This document shows, piece by piece, positions 3,005 to 36,225 of a stretch of DNA of 64,000 bases. The position numbers were made by a program, and so were the translations under genes. The notes beneath the pieces are model-generated. The model ran no database searches, was not told the origin of the DNA, and saw nothing but the letters and a program-made list of their open reading frames with translations. Positions within the stretch are counted from its first letter, which is position 1; each line of letters opens with the position of its first letter. Origin of the DNA: Candidatus Bathyarchaeota archaeon (GTDB taxonomy: Archaea > Thermoproteota > Bathyarchaeia > Bathyarchaeales > Bathycorpusculaceae); assembly GCA_963811105.1 (NCBI GenBank), contig CAWEPZ010000011.1, forward strand, positions 1,024,001-1,088,000, written 5' to 3'.

Positions 3005-4276
3005 ATGAATTTTGTCGCCATGAAAAATGCGCGTTTCGATTTTCGGGAAAAAGTTTTAATTCGCCTTTATAGGTGTTCTCTGCCTGTGTGGCGACTAGGA
3101 TTCTTCTTCCACGAGATGGCATTCGGGCTGCTTTCGATTTTTATACCACTCTACGTTGTAAGGACCCTTGGCGGATCACTAGTTGAATTGGGACTTATGG
3201 TTGCCGCAGCCTTGCTCTTCAGCATTCCCGCTTCTTTCTTCTGGGGGTACATCTGCGACAAAACAAGGCGCTACAAAATCTACATTCTTCTTTCCTTCGC
3301 TTCGGCAACAATAATTATTTATCTTTTCACACTCACAGCAAGCATTCTTCTGTTCATCTTCCTTTACGTGACTATGTCCATGCTTCACGTTGCACATGAA
3401 GCTCCCAAAAACGTTTTGATAGCTGAACACTATTCTCGAGATGAATGGGAAAAATCTTTTGCGTCGTATCAACGGCTCACTGAAGTTGGCTGGTTACTGG
3501 GGTTATTACTTGGGCTGATAGCCGCAACTCTTAGTCTCGGCACTCAGTACACATTGTTTTTGTGCAGCGGCCTAAACTTAGCTGCTTTTGTCTTATCCAT
3601 ATTCCTAGTCGCCGACCCTCTGTTGATCTTTGAACGAAGATTGGTAAGCATAGAAAAAAAGATTGACTACGCTTACCGCGGTATCAAAGTTGCCTCGCAG
3701 ATTCTTGACGGATATTCCCCTAATGATAAACTCAAGAAAGAAAGCTTCGTTGCGTTCGGCATCGCCATACTATTCTTCTCTTTAGCATCAAACACATTCT
3801 TCACACCAATGCCCATCTTCTTCGCCCAAAAACTCGCTCTCCCCACAAACATGATTTTTGTAATTTACATGTTAAACTCATTAGGTGCAATCGTTGGATA
3901 TTCCCTAATCAAAAGAAAAACCATGTTCACTGACTCAAAAAAACAGATTCGTAGAATCGTGCTCCTCAGAAGCGCACTAATCTTTCTATTAGTCGCAGCC
4001 ATCCAAATAGCGTTTTCACCAACATTTTTTGCTTCACTTGTCATGGTGCTGCTAAATCTTGCTTACGCAGTCTACTACATCCTCATGATTTCACTCGCAA
4101 TGGAACTTATACCCCAAGGCAAAACCGGAATTTTCGATGTCCTCACAGGCTTAGGCGCCGCAACAGGCTCCTTTTTAGGGCCTTTTCTCGCCCAAATGCT
4201 AGGTTTCCTCCCCCAGTTCCTAATCGCCAGCGCCATCTTCCTATTAGCATTTGCAATTCTAAAGATTTTCACCTAA
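3005..4276 (+). CDS. MFS transporter
   Basis: About 12 hydrophobic helices with central loop; motif A-like WGYICDKTRRYK. Confidence 0.9.
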   Translation: MNFVAMKNARFDFREKVLIRLYRCSLPVWRLGFFFHEMAFGLLSIFIPLYVVRTLGGSLVELGLMVAAALLFSIPASFFWGYICDKTRRYKIYILLSFASATIIIYLFTLTASILLFIFLYVTMSMLHVAHEAPKNVLIAEHYSRDEWEKSFASYQRLTEVGWLLGLLLGLIAATLSLGTQYTLFLCSGLNLAAFVLSIFLVADPLLIFERRLVSIEKKIDYAYRGIKVASQILDGYSPNDKLKKESFVAFGIAILFFSLASNTFFTPMPIFFAQKLALPTNMIFVIYMLNSLGAIVGYSLIKRKTMFTDSKKQIRRIVLLRSALIFLLVAAIQIAFSPTFFASLVMVLLNLAYAVYYILMISLAMELIPQGKTGIFDVLTGLGAATGSFLGPFLAQMLGFLPQFLIASAIFLLAFAILKIFT

Positions 4277-22478: not shown

Positions 22479-23609
22479 TTAACTCGCCTGTTGACTGCCA
22501 TTTTTGTTATGCAACTCTGATAATCGTAGAAGTGTTTCTTTGTAAACCTGTATGGCGTTGAGGTATTCGCTTATTTCGATGTGCTCATCTAAGGTGTGGT
22601 CTAGATGTGAGTCGCCTGGTCCGTAGGTTACTATTGGGAGGTTCATGGCTTTTCCGAGGATGTTCATGTCGCCGGTTCCTGTTTTGTGCAACAGCGTTGC
22701 GGGCTTGTTAAGCACTTTTCTCACGGAAGATGACAGTACATGAACAAGCGGTGAAGCTTTGTTAACTTCGAAAGGTTCGACTGTGTCTAATACGGTTGCT
22801 TTAACTGATACCTTTGGGTTGACAGCTTGGTACTTATTAATTATCTTCTCTATCTGCTCATAAACCTGAGCTGTCGAAAACTGTATTGGCACTCTGACAT
22901 CAAGGTTCATTTCAACCTCAAAGGGAACAACAGAAGTTGCTCTGCCGCCCACAACTTTTACCAAACATGCCGTAACAGCGTTGTATGGGCTTGCCGAAGG
23001 ATCCAGAGACGGATACGAAGAAGCATTCTTAATTTGCTCCCAAACTTCGAACGCTTTCTCCAAGGCATTATCGTACATCCAAGGCGTAGAAGCATGACCA
23101 GTTTCAGTTTTGCAAACAATTTTAAGTTGAATTTGCCCCTTGTAACCTATTGTTACGTTTTCAACGCCGCTGGGTTCACCGAAAATCGCGTAATCCGCCT
23201 TAATTCCCTGTGTTATTAGGTGCTTTACGCCACGGCTAGTAGCTTCTTCTTCCACAACGCTGGCAACCAAAATTTCACCTTTAAACCCAGGCTCCTTATT
23301 GGCAGCAAGTGCGGCTATAATCATAGCAGCAAGCGGGCCCTTCGCATCCACAGCACCCCGAGCGAATATTTTTCCTTCTTCAATCCGAAGAGGCAAATGT
23401 CCCGCCACCGTATCCATATGACCGCATAGCAGAATAACTGGTTCGCCTTCACCGACGACGCCGATTACGTTTCCGATAGCGTCTTTGCCTACTTCAAAAC
23501 CCATTCGTTTCATTTCATACTCTAGGTAATTGGCTGCGTCCCCTTCTTTTCCTGAAGGACTGTAAATACCAAGAAGGTTAGTTAGGAAACGTACTGCTTG
23601 CTCGCTCAT
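22479..23609 (-). CDS. lysK: [LysW]-lysine/ornithine hydrolase (M20)
   Basis: YSPSG, GHMDTV, GRG-like ARGAVDAKG, EEE, GPGDSHLDH; operon context. Confidence 0.92.
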   Translation of the reverse strand: MSEQAVRFLTNLLGIYSPSGKEGDAANYLEYEMKRMGFEVGKDAIGNVIGVVGEGEPVILLCGHMDTVAGHLPLRIEEGKIFARGAVDAKGPLAAMIIAALAANKEPGFKGEILVASVVEEEATSRGVKHLITQGIKADYAIFGEPSGVENVTIGYKGQIQLKIVCKTETGHASTPWMYDNALEKAFEVWEQIKNASSYPSLDPSASPYNAVTACLVKVVGGRATSVVPFEVEMNLDVRVPIQFSTAQVYEQIEKIINKYQAVNPKVSVKATVLDTVEPFEVNKASPLVHVLSSSVRKVLNKPATLLHKTGTGDMNILGKAMNLPIVTYGPGDSHLDHTLDEHIEISEYLNAIQVYKETLLRLSELHNKNGSQQAS

Positions 23610-24789
23610 TCTCTTCTTCTCCCAAAACCTCGTCAAGAACTAAAATTGCCTTGTCAATTTGTTGCTTCTCAATCACCAAAGACGGCAACAGACGAACCAC
23701 GGTTCTTCCAGCATCCAAAACCAAAACGCCCTTCGCTGCTGCTTTCAGAATAATATTATGAACATCAAACCGCAGTTCCATTCCAAGCATTAAACCTAAC
23801 CCTCGCACTTCCTTAACGATTTTATGCTTAGCCATTAAACCTTCCAAACCAGCCTTGAAGTACTTGCCCATCTCCGCGGCGCGATCAACAAGTTTTTCTT
23901 CTACAAGCGCATCTATGGCGGCGCATCCGGCGGCACAAACGAGTGGGCTTCCGCTGAAAGTGGTTGAGTGTTCACCGATTTTTAGAGAGGACATGATATT
24001 TTCTTTGGCGACAGTTATTCCGATGGGTAAGCCTCCTGCAAACGGCTTTGCCAAACATATAATGTCGGGTGTAACATCCCAATTTTGGCAGCCGAAAAAT
24101 TTTCCCGTTCGACCAAAACTTGTTTGCACTTCATCAAAGAGTAACAAGACATTTTTTTCATTGCAAATTTCTCGTACTGCCTGCAAAAAGCCTTCAGGAG
24201 GGACACGAACACCGCCTTCGCCTCGGATTGGCTCTATCAAGACTGCAGCGGTTTTCTCTGTTATTGCCGCACGGATTTTATCAGCGTTGTCTGGAGGCAC
24301 GTGTTTAAACTCGGGAACCAGAGGCATGAAAGGCTCGCGGTATTTCTTGTCCCATGTTGCGGATAGAGCACCCATGGTTTTGCCGTGAAAAGCTCCCATT
24401 AACGCGATAATTTCGGGTTTGCCAGTATATTTGCGGGCTAGTTTTATGGCGCATTCAACTGATTCAGCGCCGCTGTTTGACAGGAACGCTTTGTCTAAGC
24501 CTTTCGGCGTTATCTGAACAAGTTTCTGTATAAATTCTGCGCGTTTATCATTATAGTAGCAACTATGACAGGTAATCAGTTGCTCAGCTTGAGCCTGGAC
24601 CGCAGCAACTATTTTTGGGTGGCAATGTCCTAGCAAAGCGACACCATAGCTGGTTGAGCAGTCCACATATTCTTTCCCGTTTATATCCCAAACTAGCGCG
24701 CCCTTGCCTTTTGTGAGAACCAATGGTTTTTTGCTGAAAACATTCGCTAAATAGCGATTTTCAATATCTGTTATTTCTTTGTCATTCAC
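23578..24789 (-). CDS. lysJ: [LysW]-aminoadipate/glutamate semialdehyde aminotransferase
   Basis: NSGAES, FHGKTMG, DEVQT, PLP lysine in LAKP. Confidence 0.93.
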   Translation of the reverse strand: MNDKEITDIENRYLANVFSKKPLVLTKGKGALVWDINGKEYVDCSTSYGVALLGHCHPKIVAAVQAQAEQLITCHSCYYNDKRAEFIQKLVQITPKGLDKAFLSNSGAESVECAIKLARKYTGKPEIIALMGAFHGKTMGALSATWDKKYREPFMPLVPEFKHVPPDNADKIRAAITEKTAAVLIEPIRGEGGVRVPPEGFLQAVREICNEKNVLLLFDEVQTSFGRTGKFFGCQNWDVTPDIICLAKPFAGGLPIGITVAKENIMSSLKIGEHSTTFSGSPLVCAAGCAAIDALVEEKLVDRAAEMGKYFKAGLEGLMAKHKIVKEVRGLGLMLGMELRFDVHNIILKAAAKGVLVLDAGRTVVRLLPSLVIEKQQIDKAILVLDEVLGEEENERASSTFPN

Positions 24790-25600
24790 CAGTTATCACT
24801 GTACCAACCTTATGATCCAACGCCGAGCTAATAGGCTGATTTCCTGTGCCAGCGGTTACTAAGACTTCCTTGACGCCTTGATTCAAGGCTTCCAATGCCG
24901 CATGAACCTTTGTACTCATGCCCGCCCCAATGCCGGACATAATCTCTTTAACCTCAGTTGCACTGATTTTTTTAACGCACTCTCCTTTGAGCATTAAGCC
25001 TGACACGTTAGTGAGCAAGATTAAGCGGTCAGCTTTAAGAGCGCCTGCGATCATGGCTGCTGTTCGGTCGCCGTCAACGTTAAGGGGTTCAGAATCTTGG
25101 CTAAGCGCTATAGGCGTCACAATCGGTACATATCCCTTTTCAAGCAAGAGGTTAAGCAGATCAGAATTTACGTGAGTTATTTTCCCTGTATAGCCCCCAT
25201 CGATGACTTTCTTTCTGCCTCGTTCATCAACATGAATGAGTTTGGCTTTTCGATCACCCGTCAAAGTTGCAGCGTCTAGACCGCTTATACCTACAGCTGG
25301 GATGCCCTGAGTCTGCAGCGCTAGGACGATTTGCTTGTTGATTTTGCCTGCCATAACCATAGTGTAAATCTCAATTGTTTCTTTATCGGTATAGCGGCTT
25401 CGAAAGCCCTCGGGTGAAATTATGAATTTTTGTTCCTTACCAAGCTTAGATGCGATTTCAGTAACTTCTACGCCTCCACCATGTACAAGGATGACTCTGT
25501 TGGTTTTTGCAATTTCTTTCAGATCGGCGACTAAGTCTTGGGACGCGCCTTCTTTGAGTATGCTTCCACCCATCTTAATTACAAACAACATAGTGATCAC
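24782..25600 (-). CDS. lysZ: [LysW]-aminoadipate/glutamate kinase
   Basis: KMGGS, VHGGG, SPEGFRSRYTD, NVDGDR. Confidence 0.93.
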   Translation of the reverse strand: MITMLFVIKMGGSILKEGASQDLVADLKEIAKTNRVILVHGGGVEVTEIASKLGKEQKFIISPEGFRSRYTDKETIEIYTMVMAGKINKQIVLALQTQGIPAVGISGLDAATLTGDRKAKLIHVDERGRKKVIDGGYTGKITHVNSDLLNLLLEKGYVPIVTPIALSQDSEPLNVDGDRTAAMIAGALKADRLILLTNVSGLMLKGECVKKISATEVKEIMSGIGAGMSTKVHAALEALNQGVKEVLVTAGTGNQPISSALDHKVGTVITGE

Positions 25601-26652
25601 ATCGGATGGAACCCAGTACTCTTCAAGCCGGTGGTTTCATCTATGCCCATAAGAATGTTCATGCATTGCACTCCTTGGCCTGACGCTCCCTTGGTCATGT
25701 TGTCAATGGCTGAGAAAAGCAAAAGCCGATTCGCATGCTCATCAATCTCGAAACCAACGTCACAGAAGTTTGTGCCAACTGTGATTTTTGGGTCAGGCAA
25801 CTGGTAAGGTCCCTTCTGGTATTTCACTAAACGAATGAACGGCTCATTGCCATACATTCCACGAAGAGCTTTCCAAAGGTCTTTGTTCTCCAGCTTCTGT
25901 TTGGGGAAAGTATGTATTGTTGCAAGGATGCCACGTACCATGTTCACGGCGTGGGGGGTAAAGGAGATTTTTACGGGCTCATCTGTTAATGCATTCAGTT
26001 CCTGCTCAACTTCTGCGGTGTGTCGATGACCGACAACTTGGTAAGGTCGCACTCCGCTAAAGCGTTCAGGATGATGTGATGATACTGTGGGTTTGCTGCC
26101 GCCTCCTGAAGAACCAACCTTGAGGTCTACTATAATTTTGTCTTTGTAAACCAATTTGGCCTTCACTACAGGCGCTAAGCCAAGGATTGCGGATGTTGCC
26201 ATGCAGCCTGGGCAAGCAATAAGTTTGGCATTTTTGATTTCTTCCCGGTGAAGCTCAGGCAGCCCGTATGCCGCTTCTTTAAGCATTTCTGGGTGGGCAT
26301 GTTTCCAGCCATAGTAAGTTTCGTAATCAGCAGGGTTTTTGAGACGAAAGTCAGCACTCATGTCGATTACTCTTAAGCCTTCCTCTAAGAGTTTTGGAAC
26401 TAAGTTAACTGAACCTCCATGTGGAGTTGCTGTGAAGATTAAGTCGCATTCTTTCTGAATCTCAGCCATGTCTTGGGGCACAAATTTTAGCTGCGTTAAG
26501 CCTCTTAAGTTTGGGTGGATATTGAAGACGTATTCACCTACGCTTTGACGAGAAGTAACCATAGTTACCTCCACCTGAGGATGCAAAAGCAGCAACCTCA
26601 ACAATTCGCCGCCGACGTATCCTGAACCACCAATAATTCCAATTCTCAACAT
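25597..26652 (-). CDS. lysY: [LysW]-aminoadipyl/glutamyl-phosphate reductase (ArgC family)
   Basis: GGSGYVG, DMSADFRL, PGC catalytic Cys, DNMTKGASGQ. Confidence 0.94.
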   Translation of the reverse strand: MLRIGIIGGSGYVGGELLRLLLLHPQVEVTMVTSRQSVGEYVFNIHPNLRGLTQLKFVPQDMAEIQKECDLIFTATPHGGSVNLVPKLLEEGLRVIDMSADFRLKNPADYETYYGWKHAHPEMLKEAAYGLPELHREEIKNAKLIACPGCMATSAILGLAPVVKAKLVYKDKIIVDLKVGSSGGGSKPTVSSHHPERFSGVRPYQVVGHRHTAEVEQELNALTDEPVKISFTPHAVNMVRGILATIHTFPKQKLENKDLWKALRGMYGNEPFIRLVKYQKGPYQLPDPKITVGTNFCDVGFEIDEHANRLLLFSAIDNMTKGASGQGVQCMNILMGIDETTGLKSTGFHPM

Positions 26653-26676
26653 GTCTCTTTCCTCGTTACTCAATTA

Positions 26677-27858
26677 CTAGTCGATTAGACTTTGGGCACC
26701 TTTCAACAGTGGAACAGCCACATTATAACCTGTTGCCAGCCGAGTATTCTCCCAAAACTCTGGGCAAGAATTCGACTCGTGAAACACCAAAGCACTTTTA
26801 TTTTTTTCTATGCTTTCTTCAATTACCTTTTTAATATTTTCGTAATTCTGATTATTCGCATATCTCTGGAAAGCTTTTTCCAGCTTCGTATTCCACGCTC
26901 TAAAATTGGTTAGGCGAGTTTCATCTTGCTTGACTTTTTGAACAGACGCAAAAGCTTGCGAAGCCTTATCAAGTTCAGCTTTGAGGTAACCATCATCCAC
27001 CTGTTTGTTGTCTTTAACGTTTACCATAGCATCCAACGCGAAAATCCATGCTTCGCTGCCTTTACCAAGAGTTTTGCCGCACTTAACCGAAAGTTGCTGA
27101 ATACTTTTAGGTAATTTGGCGCCGAAAACCAAGTTGCCGAGAAAAGTGTTTGTTCTAAAGTCCTTAAAGCCGGCCCTTGCCATTGCTATAGGATAGCAAA
27201 CTGGTTGTTTGCCTTTCTCTTTTGAAACGATGATTCTTAAATCGTAAAACCACTTCTCAATCAGTTCCTGTGCGACCACACCGACAGGGTTAATTATTGA
27301 GGGTTTTGTTTCCCCTATGTTTGCAATTAGTTCTTCATCGTTTCTTGCAAGCATAATCATTTTGCCATGCGTTCCAGCATCAGCTTTAATCACGATGCCT
27401 TCTGAGAGAGGGATTTCTTGTTGGAACAGTTCTGCAATGTCTTTTTCATTGTGGATTATTTGCCCATTCTTTAGAGTGTCAGTTGAGTCGCACGGAACAT
27501 AAACTGTTTTGGGTATGGGGATGCCTTCTTTCCAAAGGGTAAGCAGCGTGCGTAGCTTACTGTAGCAAACAAATTCGCTTTGAGAAGAGTTTAACGCTTT
27601 TTTTTCGAGTTGCTCTATGATGTATGAGGCTTGGAGGCGACGATTCTTGCTTTGTGCACGATTAAGCACAACAGCAGTATCATTTATTGCGTTTGTGTAG
27701 TCTTTTCCTTTGGTTTTAGCGCTAAAGCCATCTTTGGATACTGATAAAGCGATTTTTCGGAAGGGCAGAAAAGTCAAGTCAATGCCTAATTGCTGGGCAG
27801 TTAGTTTTATTCCGTTTTCATCGTTTTCTGACCGCTCATAAAGAAGTGCAATGCTCAT
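26677..27858 (-). CDS. lysX: ATP-grasp LysW ligase (LysX/ArgX-like, atypically long)
   Basis: IPIPKT, QELI...DLRI, FRTN, ESN; directly downstream of lysW. Confidence 0.75.
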   Translation of the reverse strand: MSIALLYERSENDENGIKLTAQQLGIDLTFLPFRKIALSVSKDGFSAKTKGKDYTNAINDTAVVLNRAQSKNRRLQASYIIEQLEKKALNSSQSEFVCYSKLRTLLTLWKEGIPIPKTVYVPCDSTDTLKNGQIIHNEKDIAELFQQEIPLSEGIVIKADAGTHGKMIMLARNDEELIANIGETKPSIINPVGVVAQELIEKWFYDLRIIVSKEKGKQPVCYPIAMARAGFKDFRTNTFLGNLVFGAKLPKSIQQLSVKCGKTLGKGSEAWIFALDAMVNVKDNKQVDDGYLKAELDKASQAFASVQKVKQDETRLTNFRAWNTKLEKAFQRYANNQNYENIKKVIEESIEKNKSALVFHESNSCPEFWENTRLATGYNVAVPLLKGAQSLID

Positions 27859-27928
27859 CGCTTTTCTGCTTCCTGATAAAAAATTAATCAAAAAACTGAT
27901 CTAAATGAAGGATTGTTAGGGGAACCGT

Positions 27929-28147
27929 TTATTCGCCCCAGTCTTCTCCTTCAATGGTTAATTCCTGAAGGTCTACACATCCGCCCTTTACTTGCTTAAC
28001 TTCAAGTTCTAGTCCGCAACCAGGACAGCTCAGGATTTCTCCTTTCTCTGTGTCTGCTGGAACATCAAGCTCCGCTTCGCAGTCTGGGCATTTTGCCTTG
28101 TTGATAGCCTTAACCTCTGAAGGATTTATGTTTACGGGTTTAATCAT
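27929..28147 (-). CDS. lysW: Amino-group carrier protein LysW
   Basis: CPDC...CPGC and C-terminal EDWGE. Confidence 0.97.
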   Translation of the reverse strand: MIKPVNINPSEVKAINKAKCPDCEAELDVPADTEKGEILSCPGCGLELEVKQVKGGCVDLQELTIEGEDWGE

Positions 28148-29332: not shown

Positions 29333-30047
29333 TTACTTTATTACCTTTTCGATTTTCTCAACAGCGGAATTTGTTCCAATGTAGACTATATCGGTTAAGC
29401 CGACAAAGAACCCAGTTTCAACAACGCCAGGAATCATCTTAACAGTCACCTGCAATTCGGCAGGCTTCGGTATTTCACCAAAATACGAATCCAAAATGGC
29501 GTTCCCATTATCAGTGATTATTGGGCCAAGCTTACCTTTGCCTTCCCGCAAAATAGGTTTTCCGCCAACTTCAACTATCTTTCGCTTCAGCTAGCGAAAT
29601 TGCAAAAGGCAGAACTTCAATTGGAACACCTTGATTGTTTTCACCCAAAAGCTTAACTTTTTTCTGTCGGTCAGCAATAATAATATTAAGTTTGGAGGCG
29701 GCGGCAACAATTTTTTCTCTTGCCATTGCTGCACCCATACCCTTGATTAAATACAGTTCAGGAGTTAGCTGGTCAGCACCATCAATGGTCACGTCAATTT
29801 CTGGATACTCATCCAAAGTAGTAATCGGAATACCACATTTGACTGCCAACAAAAATGCCTGATAAGAAGTTGGAATACCAACAATTCGCAGTTTTTCATT
29901 TTTTATTCTTTCACCTAAGGCTTCAATAGCAAACGCAGCCGTAGATCCACTTCCTAAACCAACAACAAATCTGTCTTTAACATGTTTAACTGCTACCAAA
30001 GCTGCTTTCTGTTTTTCTTCTTGGATCGGGTCGAGGTTAGCTTTCAA
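29333..30047 (-). CDS. rpiA: Ribose-5-phosphate isomerase A, split by an apparent +1 frameshift near 29590
   Basis: GLGSGST, DGAD, KGMGAA..REK in 29571..30089; TDNGN, PGVVETG in 29333..29551. Confidence 0.9.
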
Positions 30048-30784
30048 TTTCCATTTGCCCCAGTTTATCCAAAACCTTCTCAACTTCACTTCTTATAGAT
30101 TCAATCCTCTTTTCTGCCTCAGTTTTAGCCGTAGGTTTCTCCTCTGGCGGCTTACGCTTCTTTTTCTGTTTCTCTTCCCCTCCTGCTTCTTCCGCTTCCT
30201 CTTCCTCAGCTTCCGCATCCTCAATGCGTTTCCATCTGAGAAGTAGGAGTTGGCGAAGGTAATTTTACAGGAATCTCCCTTATCGGTTTAACATCAATCC
30301 TTGTTCTAAGCTCTTCAACCTTTGAGTTCAATTCTCCAAAACGTTCACTGAAAAGCTTCATCAAGTCCTCCTGCATACCCTCAAGGTCATGGAGCGCAAC
30401 TATTGTTTCATCCTTTGATATGGACTCTTTTATTGACATCATTCTTGCCTTGTAAGTTGCAGCAAGCTTTTCTCGTTCTAATTCAGTAATCTTCCCTTCC
30501 GCTTGTGCCTCATACAAATGGCGAATGGCATCACTTAAGATTTCCCGCTCTAAATCGAGCATTCGAAGCTCATCTTTTGCACTGGAAGCTGTTGATGTTT
30601 GAACGCTCTTAGAAATCCTAAACGGTAAGCCAGAATAGTCAAGGTCTGGATCAGCAGTTTTCTGAGATTTTTTCGGCTTCGGTTTTCTTCCCTGTCTTCT
30701 CATGCCATAAATTACTATTCCGACAGCGCTGATTATGACTACCGCTACTGCAATGACTATTAAGGGGTCATCGTACCAAGCCAT
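30037..30784 (-). CDS. Membrane-anchored coiled-coil protein; apparent +1 frameshift near 30227
   Basis: N-terminal TM and coiled coil; a second frame continues EDAEAEEEEAEE...RSEVEKVLDKLGQMEIES to stop at 30037. Confidence 0.7.
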
Positions 30785-31588: not shown

Positions 31589-31957
31589 ATGAAAGCCATA
31601 GCAATACTTGGAGCCATTGCAGCAGCAATAATATTCTTTTTCGCAATAATTTTTGCCCTTGCCTCTTCGTATCAAGGAATCCCAACTCAAACCGCCCAAA
31701 CTAGGCTCGTTAGTAGTGTTTTACTTTTCATTATTGGAATTGCAGTAATTGTGGGCATTTATTTTCTTACTCGCAAACCAAAAACAGTTATCCAGCGTTT
31801 GGAAGTTTCTGGACAAATGAAAGGGGCAGCGATAAAGTGTCCGAACTGTTCAGCTTCAATTAATGCTAACGAAATAAAAATTGTTTCAGGCGTACCCTAT
31901 GTTAAATGCCCCTATTGCGGCACCACGTTTGAGGTTACTGAGGAACCAAAATGGTGA
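31589..31957 (+). CDS. Two-TM membrane protein with C-terminal Zn ribbon
   Basis: CPNC...CPYCG, ends EEPKW; overlaps next gene. Confidence 0.85.
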   Translation: MKAIAILGAIAAAIIFFFAIIFALASSYQGIPTQTAQTRLVSSVLLFIIGIAVIVGIYFLTRKPKTVIQRLEVSGQMKGAAIKCPNCSASINANEIKIVSGVPYVKCPYCGTTFEVTEEPKW

Positions 31958-33576
31958 AGCGCACCTATCTTCTAGTAGTTCTTTTAGCGCTATCGGTTAT
32001 CTTGATCGGGTTAAACACCGTTAATGCTCAGAATATAGTTTACAGTGTTGACCATCAATATACCCAGATATTCATTAACCAAGACGGCACCATCGACTTA
32101 ACCTACAACATTACCTTAACAGTTACCTCAGGAGTAATTCATGGATTCTATGTTGGTCAACCAAAAAACGACTTTACCATAGGTCAAGCAGTAGACCAGT
32201 ATGGAAACAATCTTCAAGTTTCAGACGCTAGCAGCGGCGGCGACTATAGAGTTGATGTTACACTAAACCCGCCCTTAACAGCTGGAAACTCGATCTGGTT
32301 CACTGTAACAACCAATGTTGCAGGAATGATATACAACGACACAAAGAACCCTGGCAACTTTGGCATGCAGTTTGCGCCAGAATGGACTAATGTACCAATT
32401 AATGATGTACGAGTTCAAATTTTGCTTCCGCCAGGCGCTACTACAAGCGATGTGAAAACTACTCAGAACTTCTATAACAGCACCTCAATAGTGGAGGGAA
32501 GGCTGGCTGTATTTTGGCAAATTCCAGTAATACAAGCTAACCAGAAATACTTCGTGGGCGTTTCTTTTCCAGCAAAATACATGCCTAACTACAATCCTCC
32601 CAAGACATCAGGCGACTTGGGCAGTCTGGGAAATATTCTTCCATTGATTGTTTTGCCAATAATCGCAATACTCGTAATCATAGCGGTTGTTGGAGTGGCA
32701 AGGAAAAGCACGTATTCTTCGCCTAAAGTCAGCATGGAAACCCTCGGAGTAAAACGCGGATTAACCGCAGTTGAGGCTTCTTACCTTCTTGATTTAAAGC
32801 CCACACAAATAGTTACAGAAATTCTCTATAGCCTTTTGAAGAAAAGGGCTGTTTGGGCTCAAGAAACCAAACCTTCGCTTAAACTTCAGTTGCTTACGCC
32901 TTATGAAAACAAAACAGGCACAGCAGAGAATCCCCTGCAGTATTACGAGATTGATTTTCTTGCCTCGTTGAAAACTGACGGCATGCTTGACGAGGAGAAA
33001 TTGGCGCACACTATCATGTTTTTGCGTGACACGATTGAACAGAAACTGCAGGGATACAGCCGACAAGACACAGTTGACTATTACAAAAAAATAGTTGCTC
33101 AAGCATGGACAATAGTCGAACAGGCTGGAACGGTGGAGTTAACATCAAACGCTTATGATGAACAATTGCTTTGGTTAATGCTTGACCCGAACCAAAAAAT
33201 TAAAACAGAAACAGTCTTTCAAAACAGAGTGTTCCAGCCTAATCCGCTTTGGTTCTGGTGGTGGTTCGGTTACACCACATATTATCCAAATCCAACATAC
33301 AAACCAAACATTCAAGCACCAACACAATCAGCAAAGCCGCCAGCAATTCCAGGCGCTGAATTCGCAAACAACATTGCAACCTCAGTAGAAAAAACTTCAA
33401 ACAACATGGTAGTCAACATAGAAAAATTCGCTAACTCCATTGTTCCACCGCCGCCAAAGGCTTCCCAGCAACCAGCACACCACAAAGCAGACTGCGTCTG
33501 TGCGTGTGCTGCATGTGCCTGTGCTTGCGCTTGTGTTTCATGTGCTTGTGCATGTGCAGGTGGAGGTGCCCATTAG
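31951..33576 (+). CDS. Single-pass membrane protein (DUF2207-like ectodomain) with C-terminal Cys/Ala repeat tail
   Basis: Signal peptide, INQDG beta-rich ectodomain, TM, cytoplasmic domain, tail CVCACAACACACACVSCACACAGGGAH. Confidence 0.88.
   Translation: MVKRTYLLVVLLALSVILIGLNTVNAQNIVYSVDHQYTQIFINQDGTIDLTYNITLTVTSGVIHGFYVGQPKNDFTIGQAVDQYGNNLQVSDASSGGDYRVDVTLNPPLTAGNSIWFTVTTNVAGMIYNDTKNPGNFGMQFAPEWTNVPINDVRVQILLPPGATTSDVKTTQNFYNSTSIVEGRLAVFWQIPVIQANQKYFVGVSFPAKYMPNYNPPKTSGDLGSLGNILPLIVLPIIAILVIIAVVGVARKSTYSSPKVSMETLGVKRGLTAVEASYLLDLKPTQIVTEILYSLLKKRAVWAQETKPSLKLQLLTPYENKTGTAENPLQYYEIDFLASLKTDGMLDEEKLAHTIMFLRDTIEQKLQGYSRQDTVDYYKKIVAQAWTIVEQAGTVELTSNAYDEQLLWLMLDPNQKIKTETVFQNRVFQPNPLWFWWWFGYTTYYPNPTYKPNIQAPTQSAKPPAIPGAEFANNIATSVEKTSNNMVVNIEKFANSIVPPPPKASQQPAHHKADCVCACAACACACACVSCACACAGGGAH
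33493..33573 (+). repeat. (Cys-Ala)n coding repeat, 10 Cys in 27 residues
   Basis: Synonymous codons vary (TGT/TGC; GCG/GCT/GCA/GCC), so it is not a simple slippage microsatellite. Confidence 0.9.
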
Positions 33577-34923
33577 ATGAGTTTTCTAAAATGGATTTTT
33601 GGTAAGCAAAAGGTTCCTGTAGGTCGTTATACTTATCGGGGTAAGGATAAGTTTGTGGGCATGTCCCTTCAACTGCGAATAGAGCAGAGTGGACAAGGGG
33701 TAATGGTAATCAATGCTAACAATGTTCTTCACCTAAACCATACTGCAACAGCGTTCGCTTACTTTTTCATGCAGGGATTGCAAAAAGAAGATGTTGTTAA
33801 AAAGATTCGCAGGTTGTACCGAGTTAATGCTGAAAGAGCAAAGGCCGATTATGAAAAACTAGTATTCACAATAAGTACATTGGCTCAAACAGAAAAAATT
33901 GACCCAGTCACATATCTTGAAATTGAAAAAGAAGAACCGTTCAGTCATCACTATTCAGCACCTCTACGCATGGATTTAGCTTTAACTTTTAGATGCCAAA
34001 ACGACTGCGTCCACTGCTACGCAGGGGGTCCACACGAGACACCGGAATTGTCAACGGTTCAGTGGAAAAGTGTCATCGACAAACTTAGTGAAATCGGCGT
34101 TTTCATCTTAACCTTCACAGGCGGAGAACCAACTTTACGTGAGGATCTGCCAGAACTATTATTGTACGCTCAGAACAAGGGCATCGTTACAGGGTTAATC
34201 AGTAATGGACGAAAGCTAAAAGATGAAGCGTTCGTTGAAGTGCTGGAAAAATCAGGTTTAGATTTTGTTCAGATCACCCTTGAATCACATAAACCCCAAG
34301 TTCACGACAAAATAACCTGCGCAAAAAGTAGTTGGAAAGAAACGGTTACAGGAATAAGAAATGCCGTAAAATCCCGAATTTACGTTTCAACGAACACTAC
34401 CCTAAACAAACAAAACGCCTCAGATTTTCTAACTACAATTGATTTTATTCAAACGCTTGATGTAGACGCTTTCGGATGCAATAGCTTAATTTATTCGGGA
34501 AAGGCGCCAGAAGCAAGCCAAGAATTTGCGCTATCCGTCGAAGAATTGAATACGCTTCTGGTTAAAATCCGAGACAAAGCCCACATGCTCAGGCTAAAGT
34601 TTCTTTGGTATACACCTACACAATACTGCCAATTTAATCCCGTACAGTTAGGCTTAGGCGTCAAAAGCTGCACTGCAGCCATGATAAATGCGTGTGTTGG
34701 ACCAAACGGCGATGTTTACCCATGCCAAAGCTACTTTGAAAGCTTAGGAAATATCCTAACTGATCCCTGGGAGAAAATTTGGAACAACCCGTTAGCCATA
34801 AAACTGCGAAAAAGAGACTATGTTGAGCAAAAATGTACAGATTGTTCACAGTTGCAGGTTTGCGGTGGAGGATGCCCCTTGGAGCTTCAAAACAAGGGGT
34901 ATCAATGTAGCCAGACAGGATAA
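33577..34923 (+). CDS. Radical SAM/SPASM enzyme with N-terminal PqqD-like RiPP recognition element
   Basis: LHLNHTA...IRRLYRVNAERAKAD (RRE-like), CQNDCVHC, TGGEP, SPASM C..GDVYPC..CTDC..VCGGGC. Confidence 0.92.
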   Translation: MSFLKWIFGKQKVPVGRYTYRGKDKFVGMSLQLRIEQSGQGVMVINANNVLHLNHTATAFAYFFMQGLQKEDVVKKIRRLYRVNAERAKADYEKLVFTISTLAQTEKIDPVTYLEIEKEEPFSHHYSAPLRMDLALTFRCQNDCVHCYAGGPHETPELSTVQWKSVIDKLSEIGVFILTFTGGEPTLREDLPELLLYAQNKGIVTGLISNGRKLKDEAFVEVLEKSGLDFVQITLESHKPQVHDKITCAKSSWKETVTGIRNAVKSRIYVSTNTTLNKQNASDFLTTIDFIQTLDVDAFGCNSLIYSGKAPEASQEFALSVEELNTLLVKIRDKAHMLRLKFLWYTPTQYCQFNPVQLGLGVKSCTAAMINACVGPNGDVYPCQSYFESLGNILTDPWEKIWNNPLAIKLRKRDYVEQKCTDCSQLQVCGGGCPLELQNKGYQCSQTG

Positions 34924-34989: not shown

Positions 34990-36225
34990 ATGGTTGCCAG
35001 AGATAAGCCTAGGCTGATAGTTTTTGACGTTGAAGGAGTGCTTATTCCAAAAAACCGCTTCTTGTTTGAAGTAGGAAAAAAATTAGGCTTCATTAAACTC
35101 ATTAACCTTCTTTTTTATGGTTTTTTATATGAAGCAGGCCTACTAAAACTCGAATCAGCTCTAACTCGCGCCTTCAGAGAATTAAGAGGTGTTAAGCCGG
35201 AAGAATTGATGCTTATTTTCAACAAAATTGCCTCAACCGCTTTCTTGCAAACTCTATTCGCCCAAATCAAAACGAGAAATTGCAAAATCGCCTTGATTAG
35301 CTCAGGGGTGCCATCAGATATTGTAAAAAATTTAGCCATAACAGTGGGCGCAGATTACGCTTACGGAATTGAAGTTGAAACCAAAAATGGCAGGTTAACG
35401 GGCAAAATCGAGGGTGACGTTATTCAACCGAGTGGAAAGCTCAAGATTTTATCGCAGATCATAACCTTGGAAGGCGTAAGCTTAAGAGACTGCATCGTTG
35501 TCGCCGACGACAGAAATAACCGTTGCATGTTTATGCCTGGAATACTTAAAATTGGGTTTAATCCTGATTTTTTTATCCGCATGAAAGCCGACAAGGTAGT
35601 AGTTGGGAAGCTTTCTCAAATCTTACCCATTATCGATGGTAAAATACAAAAGCGTTCTTTCCCGTCAACGAACGATTTGGTAAGAGAAGACATTCATGCT
35701 TCAGGTTTCTTTATGCCAGTTATCGCCAGTTTTACAGGTGTGCCTTTTGTTGGCGCATTAATTTTCGCAATAGCGATGGTATACACTGCCTCTGAACTTT
35801 GGCGTTTAGAAGGAAAAGAAATATTGCTCATTTCGGCAATTACACGCCACGCTGCTTCACAATCGGAACTGCATGGTTTTGCAGCAGCCCCATTATACTT
35901 TGCTGCGGGTGTATTGTCAACGCTAATTTTGTTTCCTGCGCCCGCAAGCTATGCCGCCGTTGCTATGTTCTGCCTAGGTGACAGCGCCGCTTCCCTTTTC
36001 GGAGGCCTCATATCCACATCTTTACCATTTAATAAGGGAAAAACTTGGGAAGGCTCAGTAGGTGGATTCGTGTTTGCGTTTTTAGGCGGTCTGTTTTTTG
36101 TCTCGCCAATTTGGGCTTTGATTGGAGCAGCAATTGCTATGACAGTTGAGGTTCTTCCTTTACCGATAAATGACAACGTGCTTATACCAGTGATTACAGG
36201 AGCAGCACTAACGCTTCTACTCTAA
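34990..36225 (+). CDS. Fusion of a SerB-like HAD domain and a CTP-dependent polyprenol/phytol/dolichol kinase domain
   Basis: FDVEGVL, ISSG, ADDRNN; then REDIH, GDSAASLFG, KTWEGS, DNVLIP with TM helices. Confidence 0.85.
   Translation: MVARDKPRLIVFDVEGVLIPKNRFLFEVGKKLGFIKLINLLFYGFLYEAGLLKLESALTRAFRELRGVKPEELMLIFNKIASTAFLQTLFAQIKTRNCKIALISSGVPSDIVKNLAITVGADYAYGIEVETKNGRLTGKIEGDVIQPSGKLKILSQIITLEGVSLRDCIVVADDRNNRCMFMPGILKIGFNPDFFIRMKADKVVVGKLSQILPIIDGKIQKRSFPSTNDLVREDIHASGFFMPVIASFTGVPFVGALIFAIAMVYTASELWRLEGKEILLISAITRHAASQSELHGFAAAPLYFAAGVLSTLILFPAPASYAAVAMFCLGDSAASLFGGLISTSLPFNKGKTWEGSVGGFVFAFLGGLFFVSPIWALIGAAIAMTVEVLPLPINDNVLIPVITGAALTLLL

Follow-up and report, generated by a model that had tools for sequence, protein, structure and literature searches.

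A radical SAM/SPASM enzyme encoded beside a membrane protein with a Cys-Ala tail: a candidate case of RiPP-like modification of a full-size protein

What does a radical S-adenosylmethionine (SAM) enzyme built like a peptide maturase act on when no short peptide is encoded beside it? The question is raised by a three-gene cassette in a 64,000-nucleotide stretch of DNA from Candidatus Bathyarchaeota archaeon (GenBank assembly GCA_963811105.1, contig CAWEPZ010000011.1, positions 1,024,001 to 1,088,000), hereafter the window, whose positions are used throughout. The cassette encodes a zinc-ribbon membrane protein, a 541-aa membrane protein ending in a run of alternating cysteines and alanines, and a radical SAM/SPASM enzyme with an RRE, the recognition element of enzymes that make RiPPs, peptides that come from the ribosome and are modified after translation. 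A preliminary description, made from the letters alone, had proposed the tail as the core peptide of this enzyme. Sequence, conservation and gene linkage indicate that the enzyme probably modifies the tail chemically. The best-fitting product is a set of Cys thioether crosslinks, probably of the sactionine type, to which a probability of roughly 0.55 is given.

The cassette and its Cys-Ala tail

Gene linkage, protein anatomy and conservation are direct observations. The three open reading frames (ORFs) lie on the + strand in tight succession: the first two share a 7-nt overlap, and the TAG of the second abuts the ATG of the third, just as first read. None of the three proteins is named by any curated family in the Pfam and NCBIfam scans.

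The tail is unusual within its own genome. The 541-aa protein has its first cysteine at residue 515, and 10 cysteines, encoded by mixed synonymous codons, lie within the final 27 residues, in agreement with the cysteine-free body and varied codons noted earlier. It is the only one of 1166 genome ORFs of at least 300 aa with seven or more cysteines in the last 30 residues; at a background of 1.07% cysteine, the binomial probability of such a density is about 1e-13.

Among 120 close homologues the tail is nearly invariant. Across 86 full-length representatives (about 25-48% identity, about 30% overall), the core at residues 522-539 is 92% conserved, compared with about 40% for the folded domains, and the last three cysteines, two alanines and G538 are conserved at 100%. 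The tail is the best-conserved region of the protein, which bears out that part of the case for a core. All synonymous codons are in use at every Cys, Ala and Gly position of the tail (95 loci), and therefore it is not a slipping DNA repeat; the pattern indicates selection on the tail as protein.

Linkage and lineage variants

Is the enzyme the regular companion of the tail protein? A class-wide search covered 201 genomes of Bathyarchaeia, with two weak matches (G006, G020) set aside. Strong matches to the membrane protein were found in 44 genomes and to the enzyme in 43; both genes occur in 42 genomes and neither in 156, and the three mismatches are all genes severed at contig ends. The enzyme gene lies immediately downstream of the tail gene in 30 of 30 loci examined, and the order zinc ribbon, tail protein, enzyme is kept in all 30 where the contig allows. 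Inside one genus, the cassette is present patchily (4/11), a pattern mirrored gene for gene.

The association extends beyond this class. A tail-first DNA scan of GTDB returned at least 121 stretches; the 80 with flanks, minus seven chance matches and one duplicate, gave 72 loci, and 41 further loci with 300-bp flanks only stayed uncounted. Among the matches listed, a limit that holds for all counts of main-type and Clostridia-type loci below, the enzyme is in the locus for 66 of 72 tails (42/47 of the main type and 24/25 of the Clostridia type), and four of the five main-type misses carry it elsewhere in the genome. Tail-bearing homologues thus usually have the radical SAM neighbour, a point on which the preliminary description had made its proposal depend. 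The record titles among these matches name Bathyarchaeia, Heimdallarchaeota, Methanomassiliicoccales, Thermoplasmatota, Anaerolineae/Chloroflexia and Clostridia, together with Bacilli, Planctomycetota, Polyangiaceae, Hydrogenedentales and Sabulitectum. In the reverse direction, an enzyme-first scan of metagenomes (the best 79 loci of 537 confirmed) found the tail in 68 loci, and nine of the 11 misses have less than 700 bp upstream. Co-occurrence of the tail protein with this enzyme clade, as supposed at first, holds in many phyla and in both scan directions.

Canonical DUF2207 proteins served as a control. They share with the cassette protein a signal peptide, an aminopeptidase-N-like ectodomain, a transmembrane (TM) helix, a cytoplasmic domain and a low-complexity tail ending in G-G-G-x-R; they differ in having Gly-Phe repeat tails without cysteine and in lacking the enzyme. 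All eight complete canonical proteins fetched carry a Gly-rich, Cys-free tail where the cassette family has its Cys-Ala tail, and none of their eight genes has such an enzyme within 6 kb. Canonical DUF2207 genes were found in 47 Bathyarchaeia genomes, none of them among the 43 with the enzyme. The 541-aa protein scores 19.2 bits on PF09972 (DUF2207), under the gathering cut-off of 24.4 that two orthologues barely reach, the Atlas lead to DUF2207_C is only 0.88, and an hhalign comparison of the family with one canonical member is not significant (0.7%). Across the 201 genomes, the 47 that carry canonical Gly-tailed DUF2207 and the 42-45 that carry the Cys-Ala cassette do not overlap; in family f18, canonical DUF2207 is present in 29/43 and the cassette in two others. 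This exclusion may be a lineage effect or a functional replacement.

Could the linkage be inherited gene order only, and the tail a low-complexity DNA repeat? Many loci are kin, and shared ancestry by itself would make the trees congruent, as they are (Spearman 0.82; 25 of 35 supported splits in common); congruence was left unused as evidence of co-evolution. However, the position of the enzyme relative to the tail gene varies by lineage (upstream, downstream, another locus) and co-occurrence persists, both genes follow the same patchy pattern in the genus mentioned above, and the tail keeps its residues fixed with fully mixed codons. Such an explanation is very hard to credit.

Alternatively, the system could be an ordinary RiPP in which the tail is made as, or cut to, a short peptide by an internal start or proteolysis, with the membrane protein only a carrier or long leader. 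Three C-terminal fragments, 82-176 aa long, stand as precursor peptides in a literature supplement (PMC10288494), and a proline just ahead of the linker to the tail is 92% conserved. Against this stand the 68 tail-holding enzyme-first loci: no free-standing short precursor was seen in any of them, in line with what had been noted for the cassette, and each tail ORF either includes the membrane body or is cut off by the end of its contig. Moreover, no conserved in-frame start precedes the FAN helices (Table 1) in 119 genes, the sole frequent ATG being the Met of a structural WLMLD motif, and neither a protease nor an exporter is a conserved neighbour among the ORF clusters of 110 loci (30 with 1.5 kb of flank only). 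The tail may also be internal, with a further domain after it, as in L197, P0157 and P0167; therefore a free C-terminus is not required. A released peptide is accordingly improbable.

Some tail sequences stand apart from complete cassettes. The six tail-pattern matches in viral contigs have neither enzyme nor membrane body, and a contig of the viral collection (L253:4997-5290) holds an ORF fragment at its edge with a short Gly run and Cys-Ala tail, with no enzyme seen in the locus. In L169 (G008:C55:48500-54500), L104 and L094, copies of the cassette are split over several frames, by decay or sequencing error.

The composition of the cassette differs among lineages. A zinc-ribbon gene is present in 39/47 main-type loci and, as a separate gene, in 0/25 Clostridia-type loci; the zinc-ribbon protein put forward as a partner is therefore a common companion in the main type and not an obligatory one. 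In 6/25 Clostridia-type loci the zinc ribbon is built into the substrate itself. The proposed Clostridia-type substrate is shorter, with an ectodomain, a TM helix, a short linker, the tail and an extension starting GGGRAGC; fewer than 100 of its residues are cytoplasmic. Some Clostridia loci hold several substrate paralogues per enzyme, for instance three in a row, one of them tail-less (L057:3843-6495), or two flanking the enzyme (L064:2004-6117). The Clostridia-type enzyme lacks the cysteines of auxiliary cluster II (AuxII; C420/423/429 lost).

Two further genes recur in the main type. A second enzyme paralogue, which keeps the RRE and has lost CxxxCxxC, occurs in 23/47 loci, with one more doubtful; examples are L034:4111-5313 and L033:1758-3056. 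In single cases this inactive paralogue is fused to the active enzyme (P0274) or to the substrate (L045, 1497-5030). A class I methyltransferase is present in 21/47 loci (e.g., L152:2812-3573, L091:2912-3799, L044:6383-7180) and is convergently oriented in some Thermoplasmatota loci. It was not found in the window cassette, and the window genome gives weak generic matches only.

The enzyme and the proposed chemistry

What kind of enzyme is it? The 448-aa protein matches Radical_SAM (PF04055; E 9e-24, 85 bits against a cut-off of 29.5) and SPASM (PF13186; E 4e-11, 43.3 bits against 21.5), and the SPASM pattern CX9-15GX4C..CX2CX5CX3C can be followed through C365-G378-C383, C420, C423, C429 and C433. 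Motifs and scores agree with the CxxxCxxC and full SPASM cysteine set described earlier. C351, C420, C423 and C429 are confined to main-type enzymes. The PqqD match of the window enzyme is weak (E 0.006, under the cut-off); 37 of 88 family members match PqqD at E<=0.01 (best 4e-9), and the enzyme profile matches the RRE TfuB1 (E 5e-4). In the enzyme model (predicted local distance difference test score, pLDDT, 91.6; predicted template modelling score 0.91), residues 30-104 form three strands followed by three helices, which is the order of the RRE topology (PMC6231123). The N-terminal domain is, on the model, an RRE fold. The PqqD-like N-terminus claimed at first, whose fold had been named beforehand as a point that could overturn the proposal, has thus been upheld.

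Which characterised enzymes does it resemble? SkfB is the best match both by sequence (E 1e-35) and by fold (Z 29.2, root-mean-square deviation (rmsd) 3.8, 346 residues aligned from residue 29). SuiB, aligned from residue 20, is the next-best fold match, and the N-terminal domains are included in both alignments. Six catalytic-proximity positions, chosen as in PMC10288494 and mapped by motif, are occupied by Y,T,T/S,T,Q,S (87-88 of 88 enzymes). The same positions read Y,T,S,S,Q,L in SkfB (by eye), Y,T,I,S,K,L in StsB and F,F,T,S,H,Q in CteB, which makes four of six residues identical with SkfB and two with StsB. The Clostridia-type enzyme keeps all six residues along with its RRE-like domain. 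Three auxiliary cysteines alone are invariant, as in enzymes with an open site at auxiliary cluster I (AuxI).

No curated family takes in the enzyme. It lies far under the cut-offs of the 25 best-scoring NCBIfam models (of 71 matched), among them the sactisynthase models TIGR04403 (SkfB; 92.2 of 300), NF045574 (StsB; 79.7 of 625) and NF012164 (74.7 of 850), and on TIGR04463, where the cut-off is 525 bits, it reaches 34.8. Two other radical SAM/SPASM genes of the genome (G000:C10:18555-19733 and G000:C11:1001069-1002238) score highest on this model, with 91 and 87 bits, which is still short of the cut-off, and 38 long ORFs of the genome carry a CxxxCx[FYHM]C motif.

Iterative thioether formation is the best fit because of the RRE, the SkfB-like and invariant active-site lining of 88 enzymes, the three invariant auxiliary cysteines, and a flexible, predicted cytoplasmic tail of Cys, Ala and Gly only. 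Also in its favour, StsB joins CxCxC to Gly (PMC10288494), and CrpC and QhpD crosslink proteins (PMC13692751).

Several observations weigh against thioethers as the product or against the linkage that points to them. Identity to SkfB is only 23%, and the Ser at the sixth proximity position is unlike that of any characterised enzyme compared. The linker cysteine C351, present in 64/65 main-type enzymes, might close the AuxI site as its fourth ligand; SuiB has this arrangement and forms no thioethers. The number of Cys-Ala units ranges from about 3 to 10 across the family and misfits one fixed hairpin. No leader was identified among the candidates considered below. Two enzyme-first loci, L203 and L241, lack a tail gene despite 5 kb of sequence upstream, and the kinship of the loci means that the counts overstate independence.

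The enzyme might instead modify the tail in another way: Ala or Cys could be epimerised, which leaves the mass unchanged, Cys could be oxidised to thioaldehyde or formylglycine as in anSME or lose its sulfur by desulfuration, or C-C or C-S changes could be finished by the methyltransferase. Any of these would be a new modification of a membrane protein. The same linkage evidence applies, and with nine cysteines the C-terminal region has enough for full ligation of two clusters, as in anSME and SuiB. The proximity profile, invariant within the family, equals that of no characterised enzyme compared, and a methyltransferase accompanies many main-type loci. Nevertheless, the best match in sequence, fold and proximity residues is a sactisynthase, no universally conserved spare cysteine is available as H-atom donor (C373 is Ala in 29/88 and C301 is variable), and the window cassette shows no methyltransferase. 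Such chemistry is unlikely.

Another possibility is that the tail stays unmodified and binds metal, Fe-S or sulfur, its alternating cysteines on one face, as a cluster or sulfur donor for the enzyme or for a sensor, the substrate of the radical SAM enzyme being a small molecule, a lipid or another protein. Linkage alone cannot separate a substrate from a partner, and 7-10 strictly alternating thiols next to a zinc ribbon would suit metal binding. The RRE speaks for a polypeptide substrate, since it is retained in all types, with hhalign values of 95.6% for the divergent Clostridia type and 100% for the inactive paralogue; moreover, Ala and Gly vary no more than Cys does, which would go beyond the usual need of metal ligation. 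A purely metal- or sulfur-binding role is therefore rather improbable.

Where would the enzyme bind its substrate? The preliminary description had singled out the internal near-repeat EFANNI/KFANSI as a possible RRE-binding leader. The repeat is present in the window protein, but it is not conserved: the second copy decays in distant relatives (F 66%, the next A mostly T). The region is modelled as two confident helices (468-486 and 490-497), and these are absent from the short Clostridia-type substrates that retain tail and enzyme. These findings do not support a general leader function for the region. A juxtamembrane motif, YxxPx(I/V/L), is well conserved (Y in 85/86 and P in 80/86 homologues) and recalls the YxxPxL of lasso leaders (PMC6784204). 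Most tail-less DUF2207 proteins fetched carry (Y/F)xxP at the equivalent place; the motif fails this control as an RRE leader and is only a lead for the enzyme-binding site. Co-modelling of the enzyme and residues 455-541 of the membrane protein, made without folded controls, gave a score of 0.01 and a mark of 0.32 and weighs neither way.

From these elements we infer a substrate role, a chemistry and a physiological role. The membrane protein would insert so that the ectodomain faces outward and the tail lies in the cytoplasm, and the enzyme, as its dedicated maturase, may dock at a putative internal site, using either its RRE or a contact between domains. Radical SAM enzymes cleave SAM at the CxxxCxxC cluster, and this enzyme would do the same. 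Hydrogen would then be abstracted from backbone or side-chain carbons of tail Ala or Gly, and these carbons would be joined to tail cysteine sulfurs positioned at AuxI. Repetition along (Cys-Ala)n-GGG would give several thioether rings, more likely from sulfur to alpha-carbon. The modified tail would remain on the membrane protein, which may act with the zinc-ribbon protein as an envelope-to-cytoplasm module, to which some lineages would add the inactive enzyme paralogue and the methyltransferase.

Anatomy, neighbouring genes and significance

The features of the cassette are collected in Table 1. Hydropathy gives the 541-aa protein an N-terminal hydrophobic segment (1-27) and a single TM segment at about 221-256. 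The tail is predicted to be cytoplasmic because more K/R lie on the C-terminal side of the TM segment (five, compared with two on the other side). The AlphaFold model (mean pLDDT 84.7) shows in order a signal helix, a beta-sandwich ectodomain, a TM helix, a helical cytoplasmic domain, the helices at 468-497 and disorder from residue 510; pLDDT in the tail is under 50. The ectodomain resembles the luminal domain of ribophorin I/Ost1 (6s7o_E; Z 16.8, rmsd 2.5, 177 aligned, 16% identity), ahead of the N-domain of M1 aminopeptidase (3qnf_A; Z 13.8); as modelled, the likeness to ribophorin I/Ost1 is one of fold only. Naming the cytoplasmic domain after Vps74/GOLPH3 was rejected, as a Z of about 6 in the whole-protein model is too weak, and a sequence search of the PDB with the membrane-protein profile gave no significant match. 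Four family members of about 770 aa (P0155, P0174, P0199, P0223) have an apparently duplicated ectodomain. The 122-aa protein, of an unnamed family, has a C-terminal CxxC-x19-CxxC zinc ribbon, ends in TEEPKW and scores 27.7 bits on the TIGR02098 zinc finger (cut-off 20.9).

Table 1 Features of the cassette, in window positions
Feature	Position	Strand	Basis
Zinc-ribbon membrane protein, 122 aa, two TM, probable partner subunit	31589..31957	+	TIGR02098 match, conserved neighbour
Single-pass membrane protein, 541 aa, proposed substrate	31951..33576	+	sequence, hydropathy, model
Predicted signal peptide, residues 1-26	31951..32028	+	suggested by hydropathy and model helix 5-20
Ectodomain beta-sandwich, residues 27-209	32029..32577	+	structure comparison, weak DUF2207 N-terminal match
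Transmembrane helix, residues 224-251	32620..32703	+	model, hydropathy
Juxtamembrane motif Y-x-x-P-x-(I/V/L)-x-x-E-G-x-G, residues 255-266	32713..32748	+	homologue conservation
FAN helices, residues 468-497	33352..33441	+	model
Cys-Ala tail CVCACAACACACACVSCACACAGGGAH, residues 515-541, proposed core	33493..33573	+	sequence, conservation; disordered in model
RRE-radical SAM/SPASM enzyme, 448 aa, unnamed clade, closest solved relative SkfB	33577..34923	+	profiles, model
RRE (PqqD-like) domain, residues 30-104	33664..33888	+	model, profile matches
CxxxCxxC SAM-cluster motif, C140/C144/C147	33994..34017	+	invariant 88/88
SPASM region: C365, C383, C433	34627..34908	+	invariant 88/88

The GC content of the cassette equals that of its surroundings, and therefore there is no sign of a recent island. 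A promoter and terminator scan at the cassette, of a kind ill-suited to archaea, stayed at chance level. Downstream by 66 nt and co-oriented lies a gene for a HAD/SerB-like phosphatase with a fused hydrophobic C-terminal domain (34990-36225, +), a conserved neighbour of the cassette only in a few relatives. This C-terminal domain has no Pfam match; we take it to resemble a dolichol kinase/CTP-transferase. On the - strand, what is presumably a ribose-5-phosphate isomerase-like sequence, labelled by motif, occupies 29333-30089 as two ORFs of 172 and 72 aa, a split that suggests a frameshift. A run at 23578-28147 (-), which we take from its translations to be a LysW-type arginine/lysine biosynthesis set, comprises an aminotransferase, a kinase, a reductase, an unusual 404-aa ATP-grasp protein and a small zinc-ribbon carrier.

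How does the cassette compare with known systems? No description of it, and no experiment on it, was found in searches of an open-access library. The closest case is CrpC/CrpA of Methanococcus voltae (TIGR04463 family), for which thioethers have been shown (PMC13692751, 2026): it likewise pairs an archaeal RRE-radical SAM/SPASM enzyme with a full-size protein carrying C-terminal Cys motifs. CrpA differs in its size of 28.8 kDa, its N-terminal recognition region, its 17-residue repeats and its ranthionine links (PMC13692751). In contrast, the proposed substrate of the cassette is a membrane protein of 541 aa that starts with a signal peptide and has a (Cys-Ala)n tail, and its 1.8% Cys falls under the 5% filter of PMC13692751. 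The main text of PMC13692751 makes no mention of membrane, Bathyarchae or CACAC, and three supplementary files hold none of these terms except CACAC, the two matches shown standing in nucleotide columns. In row 2 of supplementary file 3, the label CrpA_WT stands on a sequence that reads as a radical SAM enzyme, possibly a label mix-up. QhpD is also an RRE-using radical SAM enzyme and places several thioethers in a protein subunit, which is likewise not set free as a natural product; this subunit, QhpC, is small, begins with an N-terminal leader and carries Cys-Asp/Glu links (PMC13692751), whereas the cassette tail has no Asp/Glu acceptors and is placed behind a TM helix. SkfB, StsB and BlaB combine RRE, radical SAM and SPASM/twitch domains (PMC6231123; PMC10288494), and StsA offers CxCxC donors and Gly acceptors, but their substrates are short, leader-bearing peptides.

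Part of the family has been listed before. The supplement of PMC10288494 (2023; rows 3034-3036) places three of its tails, in the bacterial form of the motif, in precursor sequence similarity network group 40, 'Other Uncharacterized', paired with RRE-radical SAM accessions. They are treated there as short precursors, the main text is silent on them, and no link is made to the membrane protein, to archaea or to the zinc-ribbon gene. Membrane proteins with Ser/Gly-rich, Cys-containing C-terminal regions (TIGR04222) have been proposed as MNIO substrates (PMC12452194). That proposal is likewise bioinformatic and concerns membrane proteins as substrates of a RiPP-type enzyme; it differs in enzyme class, in tails predicted to be periplasmic and in a much looser linkage.

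The cassette would work like a sactisynthase/Crp-type system and is a member of no curated family. Among the features of RRE-dependent RiPP systems, the RRE is present, and a short leader-core precursor and a conserved protease or exporter neighbour were not found in the loci covered. The general concept of a radical SAM enzyme acting on a protein is precedented by QhpD/QhpC and CrpC/CrpA; the new aspect would be an integral membrane substrate without an N-terminal leader. To our knowledge, nearly all RRE-radical SAM enzymes are known from short peptides, and few protein substrates (QhpC, CrpA) have been shown.

If the proposal is true, this chemistry would extend to the cytoplasmic tail of a leaderless integral membrane protein in both prokaryotic domains, in a clade that escapes screens for short or Cys-rich ORFs. 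With a single soluble enzyme and a core of 18-27 residues, the claim is directly testable, and an enzyme that worked iteratively on Cys-Ala runs with no need of a leader would be a useful tool in peptide engineering. A wider reading is tentative and on balance doubtful: the enzyme may mature the membrane protein, with its signal peptide and ribophorin-I-like ectodomain, on the cytoplasmic face, recognising an internal site with no N-terminal leader and converting the alternating cysteines and alanines to a ladder-like series of rings or by undescribed chemistry. The product may then be a protein-borne cofactor or a metal- or sulfur-handling element of an envelope sensor common to Bathyarchaeia, Asgard archaea, Methanomassiliicoccales, Chloroflexota and gut Clostridia; the inactive enzyme copy and the methyltransferase may tune it in some of these lineages.

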